Of a stretch of 64,000 nt of DNA, positions 8,757 to 45,037 are shown in pieces. The DNA comes from Bacilli bacterium (GTDB lineage Bacteria > Bacillota_I > Bacilli_A > RF39 > UBA660). The stretch is from NCBI GenBank assembly GCA_017512495.1, contig JAFWGF010000049.1, forward strand, positions 5,267 through 69,266. Reading direction: 5' to 3'. Position 1 is the first letter of the stretch; each line of letters starts with the position of its first letter. The notes beneath the pieces are model-generated. The model saw only the letters and a list, made by a program, of their open reading frames with translations. It ran no database searches and was not told the DNA's origin. Made by a program: the position numbers and the translations under genes.

Positions 8757-8769
8757 AGACAATTAATAT

Positions 8770-9105
8770 ATAGACAAACGCTGGAGTCCTAGAGACTCTT
8801 GAGGAAAGTCCATGCTCACACAATCTGCGATGATTGTAGTGTTCGTGCTCAGGGATAACCTGAGGTAGCCTACTTGTAGGTTAACGGCGGATATTATTCC
8901 TAAGTCTTTGATATGGAATAATCCGTAAAGTGCCGCAGTGACGATACTTTTCGAAAGGAAAGAGTGAAACGTGGTAAACCCCGCGAGTGAGAAACCCAAA
9001 TTTGGTAGGGGAGTTCTAACAAAGGAATTGAACGGAGTTAGAAACTAATTTATTAGTAGATAAATGTTTGTCGCCCGAAAGGGTACAGAACGTGGCTTAT
9101 TTATA
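8770..9105 (+). ncRNA. rnpB: RNase P RNA, type B (ends approximate)
   Basis: Conserved P4 strands GAGGAAAGTCCATGCTC and ACAGAACGTGGCTTAT. Also GTAAACCCCGCGAGTGAGAAACCCAAATTTGGTAGGGGA, which closely matches Bacillus rnpB. Located downstream of gpsB as in B. subtilis. Confidence 0.85.
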
Positions 9106-14248: not shown

Positions 14249-14274
14249 TAGACCATTTAGATGGTCTTTTTTTA
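14249..14274 (+). terminator. Intrinsic terminator
   Basis: agaccat-ttag-atggtct hairpin followed by a T-run. Confidence 0.6.
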
Positions 14275-14319
14275 TTGGTATAACTAAATTTCTATTAAAA
14301 ATAGGCTCTTTCCTTTCAC

Positions 14320-14348
14320 TTGACAAGGGCATAAAATGCCACTAAAAT
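14320..14348 (+). promoter_or_regulatory. Sigma-A-like promoter for rny (TTGACA-17-TAAAAT)
   Basis: Hexamers read from the sequence. Confidence 0.45.
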
Positions 14349-14392
14349 AGAGGTAGATTAGATTGATACATCTGGTCTAGATGGAGGTATTT

Positions 14393-15946
14393 ATGAATAG
14401 TATAGCAATCTCCATTTTACTTGTAGTTATAGGCCTTGTAGTAGGCTTTGTAATCTCGTTAATTGTTAATTCATTGAGTGGAAATGTTGCTTCAAAGAAA
14501 GCTGAGGCAATGATAAATTCCGCTAAGAAAGAAATTGAAAAATTAAAAAGAGATGCAGCAATTGAGCAAAAAGAAGAAGCTCATAAAATAAAAATGGATT
14601 TGGATAAAGAAATCAAAGAAAAGAAAGATGAACTTAAGGAAAGTGAAAACAGATTATTACAACGTGAATCTAGTATGGATAAACGTGATGAAATGTTTCA
14701 AAAGCGTGAATCTGCACTAGAAGAGCGTGAAGATAAACTATCTGAAAAACAAGAAGAAATCCAAAATGAAAAAAGTAAAGTGGAGGAAATCAAAAAAGAA
14801 CAATTAGAAAAACTTGAAAAGATATCTGGTTATAGTAAAGCTAAAGCTCGTGAAGAAGTAATGAGCATGGTTAAAGAAAATATGACTAAAGAGATATCTG
14901 AGTATATTCGTGAGGCTGAGAATGAGGCTAAGCTAACGGCTGATAGTAAAGCTCGTGAATTAATCGTTACATCAATGCAAAAGTATGCAGCTGATATTGC
15001 AAGTGATCAGACTGTTACTGTTGTTGATCTACCTAACGATGAAATGAAAGGTAGAATTATTGGAAGAGAAGGTAGAAATATTCGTACTATTGAAGCTATC
15101 ACAGGAGTAGATTTAATCATTGATGATACTCCAGAAGCAGTAGTATTATCTAGCTTTGATCCACTAAGAAGAGAAATTGCTAGAGTAACTCTAGAAAGTT
15201 TAATAAAAGATGGAAGAATCCATCCAACTCGTATTGAAGAATTATATGATAAGACTTGTAAAGATATGAAACAAAAGATTATTGAATTTGGTAAAAATAC
15301 TACTTTTGAATTAGGTCTTACAAAGTTTGATCCAGAGTTAATTGAAACTATTGGTAAGTTACATTTTAGAACTAGTTATGGGCAAAATGCTCTACAACAT
15401 TCTAAAGAAGTAGCTGAATTATCTGGAATAATTGCTGGAGAAATGGGAGAAAATGTAGCTTTAGCAAAACGTGCTGGTTTATTACATGATATTGGTAAAG
15501 CGATAGACCATGAAGTAGAAGGTAGCCATGTAGATATTGGTGTAGATATTGCTAAGAAATATCATGAGAATCAAGTAGTAATCAATGCAATTGCTTCTCA
15601 CCATGGTGATACTGCTGCTACATCAGTTATTTCTTCAATCGTAGCTATCGCTGATGCTTTAAGTGCATCACGACCAGGAGCTCGTAATGATTCGTTAGAA
15701 AACTATATTAATAGACTTTCTCAATTAGAAGAGATTGGTAATGAAATCAAAGGTGTAGATAAGACATATGCTGTTCAAGCTGGTAGAGAATTACGTGTAG
15801 TTGTTAAACCAGAAGAAGTAGATGACTTAGAAGCACACAGAATAGCTCGTGAAGTAAAAGAAAAGATTGAAGAAAATATGAAATATCCAGGAACAATCAA
15901 AATCACAGTTATTCGTGAAACAAGAGCATTAGAAGAAGCTAAATAA
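14393..15946 (+). CDS. rny: Ribonuclease Y
   Basis: N-terminal TM, coiled coil, KH domain and HD domain (HDIGK, HH...D). GGAGG RBS 6 nt before ATG 14393. Confidence 0.9.
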
Positions 15947-37665: not shown

Positions 37666-38175
37666 ATGAGACATACAAAAATTAGTGCTGATAAGGTACG
37701 TATAGGACAAGTAAGATATTTTGATATAGAAAGGAATGCTACAGAAATACCTGAAGATAAAGCTTATGCTTTTCTAATAAATGTTAATGGGGTATATATA
37801 AATCCATTTAATCCATTAGAAGAATTACCAGTGTATGATAGAGAGCGAGGAGAAAATTATACACTAGATGGAGTTCCACATGGTACTAAAATAAAGTTAG
37901 TAAATGGAGAAGTTAAGGAAGGACCTTGCTATGTTTTGGAAAAAACTGATGGTAGAGAAATCTTTGATAAAGATATAGTTACTATAAGTGATATGGAAGA
38001 TTATATGTTCGCATCTAATAATTTCTTTGTTGATAGAATGGATGTTGCTAAAGCAAATCGTTGGAAACCTAAAGAAATGTTATATAGATATTTCCAAATG
38101 GAAGAAGATTATATTCAAAAAATGAATTTAGATATGTATTTAAATAGAGAAAAAGAAAAAGTAAATACTAAATAG
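37666..38175 (+). CDS. Hypothetical 169-aa protein inserted between sufU and sufB
   Basis: GGGGGAG RBS. No family recognised. Confidence 0.5.
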   Translation: MRHTKISADKVRIGQVRYFDIERNATEIPEDKAYAFLINVNGVYINPFNPLEELPVYDRERGENYTLDGVPHGTKIKLVNGEVKEGPCYVLEKTDGREIFDKDIVTISDMEDYMFASNNFFVDRMDVAKANRWKPKEMLYRYFQMEEDYIQKMNLDMYLNREKEKVNTK

Positions 38176-38189
38176 ACTGAGGTGGTTAA

Positions 38190-39503
38190 ATGGAAGTAAT
38201 TGGATTAAGTAAAGATAAAATTAAGACAATTTCTTCTATAAAAGGTGAAGAAGAGTGGATAAAGAAATATCGACTTGATAGTTATAAGAAATTTGAAGAA
38301 CTTGGAATGCCTGAGTTTGGACCTGAAATAGATTTGGATTTTGAAAAGATTATTTATTATAAAAATAATTCTCAAGATGATAAGATTATGAGTGATTGGA
38401 ATAATGTTTTAAAACCAATAGTTGATGATCTAGATTCAGTAGGAGTTCGAGAAGCTGAGATTCATATGGGAGGAATGGGAGTCCAATATGAAAGTGAAGT
38501 AATATATCATTCGATGTTAAAGGAAATTGAAGAAAAGAAAGTAATCTTTACTTCGATTGAAGATGCGATGAAGAAATATCCAGAACTTGTTAGAAAGTAT
38601 TTTGGAAAAATAGTAAGTAATGCTGATAATAAGTTTGCTGCTTTAAATGGAGCAGTATTCTCAGGAGGAAGCTTTATCTACATACCACCTAATACTAAGT
38701 TAGATAGACCTCTACAAAGTTACTTTAGAATTAATAGTCGTAATATGGGACAATTCGAAAGAACTTTGATAATTGTTGATGATAATAGTGATTTGCATTA
38801 TATAGAAGGATGTACAGCTCCTACCTATAGTGAATCTAGTCTACATGCTGCAGTAGTAGAAATATACGTTGGTAAGAATAGTAAATGTCGTTATTCAACA
38901 GTTCAGAACTGGGCTAATAATGTTTATAATTTAGTTACTAAAAGAGCTCTTGTAGATGAGAATGGTACTATGGAATGGATTGATGGTAATATTGGTTCTA
39001 AAGTTACTATGAAGTATCCTGCCTGTATTTTAAAAGGTAATAATTCCAAAGGAACTTGTATAACAATTAGTGTAGCTGGTTCTGGTCAAATACAAGATAC
39101 CGGAGCTAGAATGATACATTTAGGTAAGAATACCACAAGTAATATTATTTCTAAGAGTATTGCTAGAAATGGTGGGAATGCTACTTATCGAGGCAAAGTA
39201 TTAATTAATACTAAATCAGAGAACAGTGAAGCAAGTGTTAAATGTGATACATTAATTTTAGATGAATTATCTAAGAGTGATACTATTCCTAATAATTCTT
39301 GTTTTAATAAGAATAGTACTTTAGAACATGAAGCAACTGTATCTAAGATAAATGAAGATAATCTATTCTATTTAATGAGTAGAGGTATTTCTCATGAAAG
39401 AGCAATGGACTTAATAATTTTAGGCTTTATTGAAAAATTTAGAGAAGAATTACCTATGGAATATGCAGTAGAATTAAATCAATTAATAAAAAGAAACTTA
39501 TAA
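38190..39503 (+). CDS. sufB: Fe-S cluster assembly protein SufB
   Basis: HEATVSKINEDNLFYLMSRGI signature. 437 aa. Confidence 0.9.
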   Translation: MEVIGLSKDKIKTISSIKGEEEWIKKYRLDSYKKFEELGMPEFGPEIDLDFEKIIYYKNNSQDDKIMSDWNNVLKPIVDDLDSVGVREAEIHMGGMGVQYESEVIYHSMLKEIEEKKVIFTSIEDAMKKYPELVRKYFGKIVSNADNKFAALNGAVFSGGSFIYIPPNTKLDRPLQSYFRINSRNMGQFERTLIIVDDNSDLHYIEGCTAPTYSESSLHAAVVEIYVGKNSKCRYSTVQNWANNVYNLVTKRALVDENGTMEWIDGNIGSKVTMKYPACILKGNNSKGTCITISVAGSGQIQDTGARMIHLGKNTTSNIISKSIARNGGNATYRGKVLINTKSENSEASVKCDTLILDELSKSDTIPNNSCFNKNSTLEHEATVSKINEDNLFYLMSRGISHERAMDLIILGFIEKFREELPMEYAVELNQLIKRNL

Positions 39504-39575
39504 ACGATTGAATTGACAATCGTTTTTTTTAGAATTAAAATTAGCTTAGGAGGACATATATGAAATACGATATAG
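39503..39575 (+). repeat. Copy 1 of a ~73-nt direct repeat (terminator hairpin + spacer + RBS + first codons)
   Basis: aacgattgaattgacaatcgtttttttt...ttaggagg...atatatgaaatacgatat is about 90% identical to 40199-40271. Confidence 0.8.
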
Positions 39576-40192
39576 CAATGCAACTATTAAATGCAGGAAT
39601 TATTAAACAAGAAGAGTTCGAATTAGTAAGTAAAGTACTTGAAGGAGTAAAACTTTCCAAAGAGGATCTTGAAAGAGGAGATTTAACAAAGATAAGTGAT
39701 CGTTATAAAGAGTTTTTAGGTTTTACTGATAATGGTACCTTTGAAATAAAGAGAATTGTTGATGAAAAGTTTACTTTAATCTATACCAAATTCACATTAT
39801 TTTTATCAATTACCGTAAATAAATTAGGACAACTTAAATTACATATTAATGAATTTATAGCTGATGGTTTTGATCTTGCAGGAACTTATATACTTGATAA
39901 AGACTTCGATGAAGATCAAGTGAAGGTAAGTTTTTATGATAAAGATGCTACTAAAACAATAATAGAATCTGCCAATCAAAACATTTTAGATGATTTAATT
40001 AATAGTCGTCTTGATACAAGAGATTGTCAACAATGTGGCTTATTCCCAGATAAAGAAGGCATAATTGAAGAAGATAATATAATAAACTTAGTTTCTAATC
40101 TTATAAGACCTTCTAAAACTAATATTGGTTCTTTTGATGAAGAATTAAATAAAGTAACTGAATTTAGTAGTGAAAAACATAGTAATAAATAA
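39560..40192 (+). CDS. Hypothetical protein, paralog A (210 aa)
   Basis: Shares with 40256-40882 the N-terminus MKYDIAMxLLxxGxIxxExxELVSKxLxGV and the C-terminal LIxPxxTxIGSFDE motif. Confidence 0.55.
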   Translation: MKYDIAMQLLNAGIIKQEEFELVSKVLEGVKLSKEDLERGDLTKISDRYKEFLGFTDNGTFEIKRIVDEKFTLIYTKFTLFLSITVNKLGQLKLHINEFIADGFDLAGTYILDKDFDEDQVKVSFYDKDATKTIIESANQNILDDLINSRLDTRDCQQCGLFPDKEGIIEEDNIINLVSNLIRPSKTNIGSFDEELNKVTEFSSEKHSNK

Positions 40193-40198
40193 TTATAA

Positions 40199-40271
40199 AA
40201 CGATTGAATTGACAATCGTTTTTTTTATGATTAAAATTAAGTTAGGAGGGTATATATGAAATACGATATTG
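40199..40271 (+). repeat. Copy 2 of the ~73-nt direct repeat
   Basis: See copy 1. Confidence 0.8.
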
Positions 40272-40882
40272 CCATGCATTTATTGGCGAATGGAATGATT
40301 GAGAAAGAACAATATGAATTAGTAAGTAAGATTCTTTCAGGAGTTAGAATAACTCAAGATGATTTAGAAGAGGAACTTGAATACAAAAAGAGTAGTACAT
40401 ATAGTTTTTCTGGAAAATTACCAAATATAGATGATACATACGAACTTGAAATATCTAAGGATTCAGCTGATTTCTTTTTTAACTATAGAGTATCTGGCTT
40501 ATATTTTGAAGTTACTCAGAATCCAAAAAATCAAATGGGATTATATGTTATAAGAGAAAGCTCTACTGATCCATCATCTAGAAAAAATAAAGATTATTAT
40601 TTAATTAATAAGAAGGAAAAAGATGATTTTATTACGGTTAGATATTATGACAAAGATGCATATAATTTTGTTAGAGATTTAGATTATAATCTTGAATTTT
40701 TAGAGTTAGATGATTATGAAAAAGCAGGAATAATTCCTGATGAAGAAGTTATTATTAATGATGTTGATATGTTAGATTTTGCTCATAGTTTAATTGCCCC
40801 TTTCACAACAGGCATAGGTAGTTTTGATGAGACTGTTGATAGAATCATTCATCCAGCTAAACAAAAATCTTTAGAATACTAA
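40256..40882 (+). CDS. Hypothetical protein, paralog B (208 aa)
   Basis: See paralog A. About 30% identity overall. Terminator at 40905-40945. Confidence 0.55.
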   Translation: MKYDIAMHLLANGMIEKEQYELVSKILSGVRITQDDLEEELEYKKSSTYSFSGKLPNIDDTYELEISKDSADFFFNYRVSGLYFEVTQNPKNQMGLYVIRESSTDPSSRKNKDYYLINKKEKDDFITVRYYDKDAYNFVRDLDYNLEFLELDDYEKAGIIPDEEVIINDVDMLDFAHSLIAPFTTGIGSFDETVDRIIHPAKQKSLEY

Positions 40883-41036
40883 AGTTGTTTATTGAAATAT
40901 GTAAATAATTTAAAAAAAGATAATTCCCTTAGGGAATTTCTTTTTTTTAGATATTTATTGATATGAAAAAGTAAAAAGCACGATTTGTTTTCTTAAAAAT
41001 GTGCGTGTATTATACGCTCTTGAGAGGAGGTGATTC

Positions 41037-41381
41037 ATGCTTAATCAAGTAGTACTCGTTGGTAGACTTACTCGTAATATTACTGTTAATAAATCAGACA
41101 AAGGCATTAAAGTTGCTACCATCCCTTTAGCCATCCCAAGAAGCTTTAAAAATAGTGACGGAACATATGATACAGATTTTATTGATTGTGTTGCTTTTGA
41201 TAGTATTGCGAATAATACTAGCGAGTATTGTGAGAAAGGGGACATAGTAGGAGTAAAAGGAAGAATTCAATCTAGACAAATTGATAAAGAGGGGCAAAAA
41301 ACAACAGTAGTAGAAATTGTTGCTGAAAAAGTAACATTTTTATCTAGCCATACTAAAGAAGAAAAAGAAGCAGATGAATAA
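41037..41381 (+). CDS. ssb: Single-stranded DNA-binding protein (short OB-fold form, acidic tip EEKEADE)
   Basis: MLNQVVLVGRLTRN...OB-fold SSB pattern. Confidence 0.7.
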   Translation: MLNQVVLVGRLTRNITVNKSDKGIKVATIPLAIPRSFKNSDGTYDTDFIDCVAFDSIANNTSEYCEKGDIVGVKGRIQSRQIDKEGQKTTVVEIVAEKVTFLSSHTKEEKEADE

Positions 41382-43065: not shown

Positions 43066-43125
43066 AAAAATGTTTGATTTTATATGAAATATGATATAAT
43101 ATAAATGTAAGGTTAGGTGATTTTA

Positions 43126-44400
43126 ATGGAAAAAATTTATACACAAGAACAAAAAGAACAAAAGGAACGTAAACAAAAGAAAGGATTACAAAGAAATGTT
43201 GATTTTTCAGTAGCTTTATCAGTAATAGTTGCTGCATTCGCACTATTCTCAGTTGCTTCATTCAATATCATGAATAGACAAGAAGAGAAAGTAAGTTATG
43301 CTGCACCTACAGGAGATACTTTTACAATGGTTACACCAGAAAATGGTTCTTCAACAGTAGCAAGTGCTATTGTGGGATATACTGCTGATGGAAATCAATT
43401 TTTAAGAGTACCATTCTATTATGCAGATTCAATTGATGCTACTAATCGTGTTTTCTGTGTTCAATTGCGTAAGCAAGGTGGAGCTGGAAAAACATACAGC
43501 ATTAATAATGAAACTGCTAGTGGAGACCCAGGACTTATTTATATTCTAAATAATAGTATTGCAAGTGGTAGTCAAAAAAAGATTACTAATTATAATGGAC
43601 CACACGCAGAAGATATCGAGGTATGGGCTACTCAAGCTGCAATTTGGTTATATTTGGCAGAACAATATCCAGGAGCAGATAATAATTTTTATGGCGATAC
43701 CGAAAAACATGAAAATCCAACAGATTCCGATTCACCATATGTTGATACTAAAACAGCTGCAACAACTGCAACAGTATTTAAAATGAGTGGTGGTCCTGAT
43801 TCTGGTGATCCTATAGAAGCTGCTGGGGTATCAGCTGCTGTAGTATCTCTAGTTGAGAAAGCGAAACAACAAAAAGCTTCGTTAGTTTCACAACTTACTC
43901 TTGCACGTGCTAGTGATCAATTAGGAAAAACTGAAGATGGAAAATACTATCAAACTTTATATAGTGTTACTGGAACACCTGCAAATTCTCTAACTAGTTA
44001 TGACATTACTAAATTAGATGGTGTTGATGGTATTAAAGTTGTTGATGAAAATGGTAAAGATTTACAACTTACTAATATTGCAGCCGGAAAGAAATTTTAT
44101 GTAAGAATCCCAGTAGACAAAGTTGGACAAGAAAAGAGAACAGTAAGAGTAGAAGCTCTAGGACACTTCAATATTACAACAGGTGTTTATTATGTAACAG
44201 ATTCAACTAATGATCAAAAAGTTGTTACACTAAAAAGTCGTCCAGAAAACAAATCTAATGGAGATCAATTCAATATAGTAGGTTCTCCTGATACAGGAAT
44301 GAATGCTGCACAAACAATTTACTTTATTGGTTTAATAGTATTGCTTTGTGGTGTAGGTATTGTTTATGCGAATACAAAACCTGTTGAAAGTAAACAATAA
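43126..44400 (+). CDS. Cell-wall-anchored adhesin with a thioester (TQXA) domain and a C-terminal SPDTG sorting signal
   Basis: N-terminal signal anchor. FCVQ Cys motif and TQAAIW Gln motif of thioester domains. C-terminal SPDTG + hydrophobic stretch + KPVESKQ. Confidence 0.65.
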   Translation: MEKIYTQEQKEQKERKQKKGLQRNVDFSVALSVIVAAFALFSVASFNIMNRQEEKVSYAAPTGDTFTMVTPENGSSTVASAIVGYTADGNQFLRVPFYYADSIDATNRVFCVQLRKQGGAGKTYSINNETASGDPGLIYILNNSIASGSQKKITNYNGPHAEDIEVWATQAAIWLYLAEQYPGADNNFYGDTEKHENPTDSDSPYVDTKTAATTATVFKMSGGPDSGDPIEAAGVSAAVVSLVEKAKQQKASLVSQLTLARASDQLGKTEDGKYYQTLYSVTGTPANSLTSYDITKLDGVDGIKVVDENGKDLQLTNIAAGKKFYVRIPVDKVGQEKRTVRVEALGHFNITTGVYYVTDSTNDQKVVTLKSRPENKSNGDQFNIVGSPDTGMNAAQTIYFIGLIVLLCGVGIVYANTKPVESKQ

Positions 44401-45037
44401 AATCAAAAAGAGCCATACGTTACTGCTTGGCTCTTTACTTATTTTTGGAGGGGTAATTGCATTATCTTGGAATTATTTAGCAAAGATGAGAGATGAAGTT
44501 TATTCTGAAATGAAAATTGCTATGATGGATAAAGATATCCCTAAGAATGTTTCCGAAGGAGATGTAGTTGATACTGCACCAATTGCAAATAATGTTGAAC
44601 AACCTGCTCAAAATAATAATAATTATGTAGTAGATTATAGTAAGTATTTAGGAGTATTAGAGATACCTAAAATAGGATTAAAAAGAGGTTTTTATAACGT
44701 AGGTAATAGATACAATAGAATTGATTATAATGTTACAATGGTTAATGGTTCAACCTTACCAGATGTTGTTAATGGTAACCTAATCTTAATAGCACATTCT
44801 GGTGATGCTTATATTTCATATTTTGCTTATCTATATAGGTTAAATATAGGTGATCAAGCTTATGTAACATATCAAGGTCGTAAATATCAATATCAAATAG
44901 TTGATATTTATGAAGTAAATAAGAATGGTATAGTTACAATAAGAAGAAATGAAAATAGAACTGTTTTAACAATGATAACTTGTACTAAGAATAACGATCA
45001 TACTCAAACTGTATATATTGCTGAACTTATTGGCTAG
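44360..45037 (+). CDS. Sortase-family transpeptidase (atypical: no Arg visible downstream of the TLxTC cysteine)
   Basis: Signal anchor, LILIAHSG (His), GDQAYV..Y.Y.I, LTMITC (Cys). Confidence 0.65.
   Translation: MFMRIQNLLKVNNKIKKSHTLLLGSLLIFGGVIALSWNYLAKMRDEVYSEMKIAMMDKDIPKNVSEGDVVDTAPIANNVEQPAQNNNNYVVDYSKYLGVLEIPKIGLKRGFYNVGNRYNRIDYNVTMVNGSTLPDVVNGNLILIAHSGDAYISYFAYLYRLNIGDQAYVTYQGRKYQYQIVDIYEVNKNGIVTIRRNENRTVLTMITCTKNNDHTQTVYIAELIG

Follow-up and report, generated by a model that had tools for sequence, protein, structure and literature searches.

A tandem pair of fast-diverging paralogous genes with a conserved terminator- and promoter-like boundary module between sufB and ssb of an uncultured Bacilli bacterium

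The window analysed here is a stretch of 64,000 nucleotides (nt; 27.5% GC) of a Bacilli bacterium (GenBank assembly GCA_017512495.1, contig JAFWGF010000049.1, positions 5,267 to 69,266 of the forward strand). It carries, between sufB and ssb, two adjacent paralogous genes (gene A, upstream; gene B, downstream), each preceded by a nearly identical, largely non-coding boundary (b1 and b2, respectively). The pair probably arose when a transcription unit complete in itself was duplicated in tandem a single time; purifying selection then acted on the boundary module and the N-terminal helices of the proteins, and divergence was rapid elsewhere. This reading builds on direct observation of the anatomy of the locus, its synteny and copy numbers, the conservation footprint of the boundary, the absence of concerted evolution, and the evolutionary rates. 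The anomaly of the locus is the hyper-divergent gene bodies, not the boundary; the identity of the two boundaries would follow from a functional module that was duplicated together with its gene.

The 696-nt direct repeat and its copy number in relatives

The locus is organised as a direct repeat with a period of 696 nt (Table 1). Genes A and B are full-length paralogs with 33% amino-acid identity over 212 columns (BLASTP, E=1e-28); a preliminary description, made from the sequence alone, had estimated a similar value (about 30%) but had limited the likeness to three shared motifs, whereas it runs over the full length. The boundaries at 39502-39574 and 40198-40270 are identical in 66 of 73 nt (90.4%), and in 52 of 58 nt when their non-coding share is taken alone; random 73-mers of the window average 30% identity. 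The 64 kb contain exactly two copies each of the 25-nt hairpin core and of the ribosome-binding site (RBS)/start string (0.00 expected by chance for either). Compared unit to unit, nucleotide identity is highest in the boundary (83-93%), lower over the first ~100 coding nt (60-73%) and lowest in the remaining gene body (roughly 30-67%, mostly 40-55%). The earlier account of a tandem paralog pair with near-identical boundaries is thus confirmed, including the positions of the open reading frames (ORFs), as is its statement that the boundary is more conserved than the coding bodies.

The protein family is very small: 22 relatives were found among 5.8 billion clusters, and ten clusters at 50% identity, only two of them A-type, among 1.84 billion representatives. 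All members are from gut or rumen metagenomes, and the GTDB species representatives found were a 'Bacilli bacterium' from goat jejunum and a rumen metagenome-assembled genome named 'uncultured Erysipelotrichaceae'. The order suf operon, family gene(s), ssb was observed in all close relatives recovered. One B-type copy is present in L004, L006, L008, L013 and L017, and two copies in the window/L009, L001/L002/L005, L007 and L018; gene B of the window is the ortholog of the lone gene in the one-copy relatives. The copy number was one or two at every locus recovered, and more than two in no genome examined; within the window, no further family member was detected by tblastn. Since the two-gene arrangement is repeated in independent assemblies (L009, L001, L002, L005 and L018), it is not an assembly artefact. 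Two irregularities were observed among the relatives: sufB of L007 (1511-2824) is broken into two ORFs (223 and 177 aa) through a frameshift or assembly error, or as a pseudogene, and the metagenomic protein P0024 (149 aa) is chimeric or truncated, with 35 hydrophobic N-terminal residues fused to a B-type C-terminus of 114 residues.

In the one-copy state, the suf operon would end at a weak intrinsic terminator with a -35 box in its hairpin, followed by a -10 box, a strong Shine-Dalgarno sequence and an orphan gene for a protein of ~206 aa. A segment of ~696 nt, reaching from the final codon of sufB to shortly beyond the stop codon of the orphan gene, would then have been copied once in tandem in a single sub-lineage of uncultured Bacilli of the ruminant gut, giving two independent monocistronic units, both complete with terminator, promoter, RBS and gene. 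The Leu codon and stop that end sufB (TTATAA) persist, in the window, L005 and L018, at the start of b2 and unit 2; this fossil points to the left edge of the duplicated segment. GGAGGG is found in the spacer after the Shine-Dalgarno sequence in all b1 and b2 copies examined of two-copy genomes except b1 of the window (GGAGGAC); five of the seven copies have the full GGAGGGTATAT, and b2 of L018 reads GGAGGGTGTGTT. This common spacer favours a single duplication event. The second boundary is dispensable: its hairpin and promoter are deleted in L007 (leaving a 14-nt gap, with the RBS kept) and its stem has a mismatch in L018 (with the promoter spacing kept). In every genome, purifying selection acts on the regulatory module and on the domain of three N-terminal helices, and the beta-sheet and C-terminal parts of the family evolve very fast throughout, with a ratio of nonsynonymous to synonymous substitution rates (dN/dS) of about 1 between the paralogs.

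Table 1. Features of the A/B locus (positions in the window)
Feature	Position	Strand	Description
Duplication unit 1	39497..40192	+	696 nt: last codon and stop of sufB (TTATAA), module b1, gene A
b1 hairpin + T8	39502..39530	+	AAACGATTG / CAATCGTTT, 6-nt loop; predicted intrinsic terminator of the suf operon
Promoter-like site of gene A	39513..39541	+	TTGACA-17-TAAAAT; -35 box in hairpin loop and 3' arm
RBS of gene A	39546..39553	+	TTAGGAGG; 6 nt before ATG
Gene A	39560..40192	+	210 aa; upstream, fast-diverged paralog; MBR2679024.1, annotated as hypothetical protein
Duplication unit 2	40193..40888	+	696 nt: module b2, gene B
b2 hairpin + T8	40197..40226	+	Predicted terminator of the gene A transcript; -9.5 kcal/mol
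Promoter-like site of gene B	40209..40237	+	TTGACA-17-TAAAAT; consensus match
RBS of gene B	40242..40249	+	TTAGGAGG; same string as for gene A
Gene B	40256..40882	+	208 aa; ancestral-type copy; MBR2679025.1, annotated as hypothetical protein
Closing terminator	40922..40947	+	AATTCCC-TTA-GGGAATT and T-run; between the pair and ssb

Divergence of the gene bodies

For SufB, identity is 93-100% in every genome pair, and for SSB 86-100% across the same genomes; B orthologs are 40-94% identical. Gene B of the window shares 71-86% identity with its one-copy orthologs in four of five lineages, and just 45% with that of L013, where SufB is 95% identical to SufB of the window. Gene A is 31-38% identical to every B, and the A-slot gene of the window matches those of L005, L018 and L007 at 86%, about 70% and 44%, respectively. 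Between paralogs, dN/dS is 0.65-1.0 for the whole gene, 0.9-1.2 for the beta-sheet domain, and 0.23-0.32 for the N-terminal 43 codons. Orthologs of one type (A with A or B with B, in species-level pairs) have a value of 0.18-0.32, e.g. 0.22 for gene A and its L005 ortholog, so that both copies are functional today. Synonymous divergence (dS) of A and B is 0.7-1.0, near saturation, and species-level dS is 0.4-0.6. The pair had been described as other than a simple recent duplication, and this holds, given a dS near saturation and gene bodies that occupy a variable slot with presence/absence polymorphism.

Among genomes with SufB at least 93% identical, the A slot is occupied by an A-type gene, by an A'-type gene, or is empty. 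In sliding-window comparisons of the window and L007, nucleotide identity is ~90% at the boundaries, falls sharply to 50-60% exactly across the body of A, and then recovers; the entire locus emerges from such comparisons as a recombination mosaic. Two allele classes also exist for the C-terminal end of B (~50 residues; 40730-40880, forward strand), namely ...PFTTGIGSFDE... in the window and L004 and ...PYTHGEGKFED... in L005, L007, L008 and L017; nucleotide identity is only 62-70% in this region and 85-95% in its flanks.

The state of the A slot and the mosaic structure could be read as a variable cassette locus, immunity- or effector-like, at which conserved boundaries anchor the exchange of divergent gene bodies between strains. 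The further B type in L013, the dN/dS of about 1 in the beta domain and the small, acidic and cytoplasmic nature of the proteins (isoelectric points of 4.4-5.0) fit this reading as well; we consider it improbable all the same. The copies never exceed two, and the family comprises the ten clusters given above. No toxin, secretion or defence gene adjoins the pair, and there was no PADLOC or PHROGs match. The boundary element was found solely ahead of these genes in the window and the fetched loci, and was absent from viral contigs. In addition, homologous recombination of the ordinary kind would be expected to leave breakpoints beside segments of high divergence.

The preliminary description had likened the locus to a cassette-like array, with gene conversion confined to the 5' end, as in polymorphic immunity or variable-effector arrays. 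An array is contradicted by the copy number of one or two, always between sufB and ssb. The search for a polymorphic-toxin partner, upstream of the pair and at related loci, found none, and an immunity or effector role was further opposed by the lack of a PADLOC, PHROGs or Pfam match and by the distant homologs (P0025-P0030, 18-26% identity), which are solitary genes in unrelated contexts, next to genes for RNase J, ribosomal protein L9 or a PLD-family protein; no toxin and no common neighbour were found around P0025, P0026, P0028 and P0029. None of the cassette-array, gene-conversion (see below) and immunity readings passes the tests that define it. A weaker version survives with a low probability, namely a variable slot between conserved anchors. 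With a similarly small likelihood, the locus might be a diversity hotspot for an arms-race protein (an inhibitor or decoy directed at a variable phage or competitor factor) that would combine a conserved docking module at the N-terminus with a beta-sheet surface for recognition that diversifies rapidly, the boundaries serving as homology anchors for gain, loss or swap of gene bodies; it would then represent a minimal two-slot cassette system between housekeeping genes.

The boundary module

The module comprises, in the window, the hairpin with its T8 run, a perfect -35 box inside the hairpin (TTGACA), 17 nt, TAAAAT, 7 nt, GGAGG, 6 nt, and ATG; the 56-63 nt between the genes are non-coding regulatory sequence. 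The b1 hairpin (-8.6 kcal/mol by RNA folding) was also found by a terminator scan. Two of the three perfect TTGACA-N17-TAWAAT sites in the 64 kb (0.16 expected) are those of b1 and b2, and both are the top scorers (11/12) in the surrounding 10 kb. The third perfect site (TTGACA-N17-TAAAAT, 14320-14348, forward strand) is located ~45 nt past a terminator-like hairpin (AGACCATTTAGATGGTCT and a T-run) and ~45 nt ahead of an ORF starting at 14394, so that the region 14250-14400 is a second intergenic region in the window with a terminator followed by a promoter-like site.

The same module, in the same geometry, precedes the lone gene in one-copy genomes, right after the sufB stop codon. The geometry is constant in all ten hairpin-bearing boundaries (TTGACA, 17 nt, TA[A/G]AAT, 7 nt, GGAGG, 5-7 nt, ATG); the T-run (7 or 8 nt) and the spacer letters vary, while the hexamer spacing stays at 17 nt. 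Conserved islands in the alignment are the stem, the loop TTGA, the T-run, the -10 hexamer and TAGGAGG, and the letters between them vary. The hairpin has the sequence features of an intrinsic terminator, i.e. a 9-10-bp stem, a 6-nt loop and T7-8 on the sense strand in 10/10 copies, at 0-1 nt from the sufB stop codon or 4-5 nt past the gene A stop codon, and is predicted to end transcription; its stem is weak and AT-rich (-8.6 to -13.1 kcal/mol across the copies), and the closing terminator behind gene B is stronger than b1 and b2 (-15.1 kcal/mol, z = -3.5). The hexamers have the features of a sigma-70/sigma-A promoter (score of 11/12, with hexamers and 17-nt spacing kept in 10/10 boundaries) and would act as such. 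Conservation of the loop is not needed for a terminator and would be expected for a -35 box. Transcription is predicted to start at ~39547-39549 and ~40243-40245, about at the A of AGGAGG, with a 5' leader of ~12 nt, almost of leaderless length.

Instead of a terminator, the inverted repeat could be an operator bound by a repressor at the DNA level, or a riboregulator, with both genes under its joint control, and its 8-9 bp do overlap the -35 box in the classic position for a repressor; this is nevertheless quite unlikely. Across the ten boundaries, 98.9% of the stem cells are paired, and the five variant cells all have G-U in place of A-U, altered in the 5' arm, which remains paired only in the RNA of the forward strand and breaks the DNA palindrome. 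These G-U-only variants favour a terminator over an operator, although they are no statistical proof in the absence of double compensatory changes, and on their account the operator reading is disfavoured. Also, the repeat is followed by T7-8 in every copy and lies directly behind the sufB stop codon, the expected place for an operon terminator; against a riboregulator, no known RNA family was recognised at 39300-41100 (Rfam 15, best E of 3.2, all far below the gathering scores).

Recurrent gene conversion limited to the 5' boundary would maintain the likeness of the upstream regions and of the first codons, with the rest of each gene left to drift. It would account for the contrast of 90% identity in the boundary and ~50% in the body, and two further observations agree with it: the L007 copies have 38 identical nt in common (ATTAGGAGGGTATATATGAAATACGATATTGCGATGCA), including a GCG Ala codon that is absent from the window and L005, and the GGAGGG spacer is common to the b1 and b2 copies examined of two-copy genomes, b1 of the window excepted. 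Conversion is very unlikely, however, and was rejected by the diagnostic-site counts over the boundary and the first 129 coding nt: for the window and L005, 36 sites indicate orthology and none within-genome homogenisation, and for the window and L007, eleven indicate orthology and one within-genome similarity. Different species have a b1-specific GA and a b2-specific TG after the T-run in common, the GCG codon is also present in the single-copy L013 and may be ancestral, and the module is equally conserved in one-copy genomes, where conversion is impossible. Mean identity of orthologous boundaries is 0.82, and b1 and b2 of one genome, at 0.88-0.89, lie inside the orthologous range. The preliminary description had itself allowed that function might explain the boundary identity, and this comes close to what was found: since the module is as well conserved in single-copy relatives, and its footprint matches terminator, -35 box, -10 box and Shine-Dalgarno sequence, the identity is explained by function and co-duplication.

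Several points weigh against a single duplication of a unit with its own terminator and promoter. The promoter and terminator assignments derive from consensus matches and from the conservation footprint. The -10 box ends 7 nt before GGAGG, implying a very short 5' leader; the b1 and b2 hairpins are weak (-8.6 to -9.5 kcal/mol, z about -1.6); and with zero double compensatory changes in the stem, the covariation test has no statistical power. Conservation of the boundary is only modestly above background (0.82, compared with 0.71 for the B-ssb spacer and 0.76 for third codon positions of sufB). All sequences come from about eight metagenomic lineages. The timing of the duplication is uncertain, as dS of the paralogs exceeds that at species level, and the mosaic structure of the locus bears on this timing as well: the duplication could date to about the base of this radiation (i.e. 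be recent), or be older, with later losses via recombination between the repeats. Recombination between the direct repeats of ~60 nt would remove A precisely.

Encoded proteins, neighbouring genes and comparison with known systems

Proteins A and B are predicted to be hydrophilic and cytoplasmic in addition to being acidic. AlphaFold2 models were confident for both (A, predicted local distance difference test score 82 and predicted TM-score 0.81; B, 83 and 0.82), with the same order of elements: three N-terminal helices, an antiparallel meander of 7-8 strands, and a C-terminal alpha/beta part. Remote-homology searches, as had been proposed along with structure prediction, gave no significant sequence or fold match. 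Scans of A, B and the distant homologs against Pfam, NCBIfam, PADLOC and PHROGs yielded noise only (E no lower than about 0.02), the PDB sequences gave no match in a profile search, and Foldseek searches (A and B against PDB, B against BFVD) found no match with E <= 0.001 and no TM-score above 0.32. Weak Foldseek matches repeatedly included the p32/C1QBP (MAM33) fold and the OspA single-layer beta-sheet; these resemble A and B in being acidic, with N-terminal helices, an antiparallel meander of 7-8 strands and C-terminal helices, but with TM-scores of about 0.2 (from 0.2 or lower to 0.25), E >= 0.05 and low probabilities, a relationship is unsupported. Because a conserved N-terminal module is combined with a fast-evolving sheet, we tentatively suggest, as a doubtful guess, a soluble acidic binding protein whose N-terminal helices dock on a conserved partner and whose fast-evolving sheet surface tracks a variable one. 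The family (~200 aa, acidic, without sequence or fold relatives in the libraries searched) occurs only in uncultured gut Bacilli, and its evolution is far faster than that of the housekeeping genes beside it; it is therefore a candidate lineage-specific interaction protein.

Upstream of the pair are sufS, sufU, orfX and sufB; downstream are ssb, an acetyltransferase gene and a gene of pyrimidine-nucleoside phosphorylase type (Glycos_transf_3/PYNP_C). It is highly unlikely that A and B assist Fe-S cluster assembly as accessory proteins, with transcripts that read through the weak suf terminator and a duplication that led to sub-functionalisation within the Suf pathway: the gene does directly follow sufB, in the same orientation, in every close relative recovered, but the distant homologs have no suf neighbours, A and B have no conserved Cys or His ligands (B has no Cys at all), such fast evolution is atypical for core Fe-S machinery, and the gene has its own conserved promoter-like site.

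Within the suf operon, orfX (37666-38175, forward strand; 169 aa, without Pfam match) is located between sufU (NifU_N) and sufB, and forms two allele classes in the relatives, with 54-57% amino-acid identity between and 66-96% within classes (96% for L005 and L008), where SufB stays at least 93% identical. The ssb gene (41037-41381, forward strand) encodes a short SSB of 114 aa with the C-terminus ...EEKEADE, read as lacking the usual long C-terminal tail, and an additional ORF of 138-159 aa is located downstream of ssb in L001, L002, L005 and L007. About 2 kb downstream of A/B is a surface-protein/sortase pair: a 427-aa protein with a C-terminal membrane anchor (43117-45037, forward strand; faint thioester-domain match in relatives) is encoded by a gene that overlaps the start of a sortase-family gene. 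An RNase P RNA of bacterial class B (8765-9104, forward strand; 276 bits) is consistent with an origin from Bacilli/Firmicutes.

Compared with known systems, the locus resembles polymorphic toxin-immunity arrays (contact-dependent inhibition, Rhs and LXG orphan modules) in that its proteins are small, acidic and cytoplasmic, its genes are tandem paralogs with variation in presence/absence, and divergence is sharp between flanks that are conserved; it differs from them in having no toxin gene, no conserved toxin-derived pretoxin boundary, at most two copies, housekeeping surroundings that stay the same, and no similarity to an immunity or defence family. It resembles a tandem duplication with asymmetric divergence in its single head-to-tail repeat of a gene with the upstream control region, with B near to and A far from the single-copy orthologs, and both now under purifying selection. 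It differs from that pattern in a divergence that is extreme for the time involved (SufB at least 93% identical), and in an upstream slot that varies among close relatives (A, A' or absent). The event is ordinary in kind and the protein family is uncharacterised. The locus may serve as a calibration case, since a boundary more conserved than its coding bodies looks exotic and is here explained by a constrained, co-duplicated module.

Bifunctional intergenic modules are a feature of Firmicutes, in which an intrinsic terminator is followed or overlapped by a sigma-A promoter. The boundary described here agrees with these in the hairpin and U-tract after the last stop codon of an operon, followed by consensus -35, -10 and Shine-Dalgarno sequences; it differs in that the -35 box lies within the hairpin and the -10 box only 7 nt from the Shine-Dalgarno sequence. 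With its -35 box inside the terminator hairpin, the module would represent a natural example of predicted insulation and re-initiation within about 55 nt.

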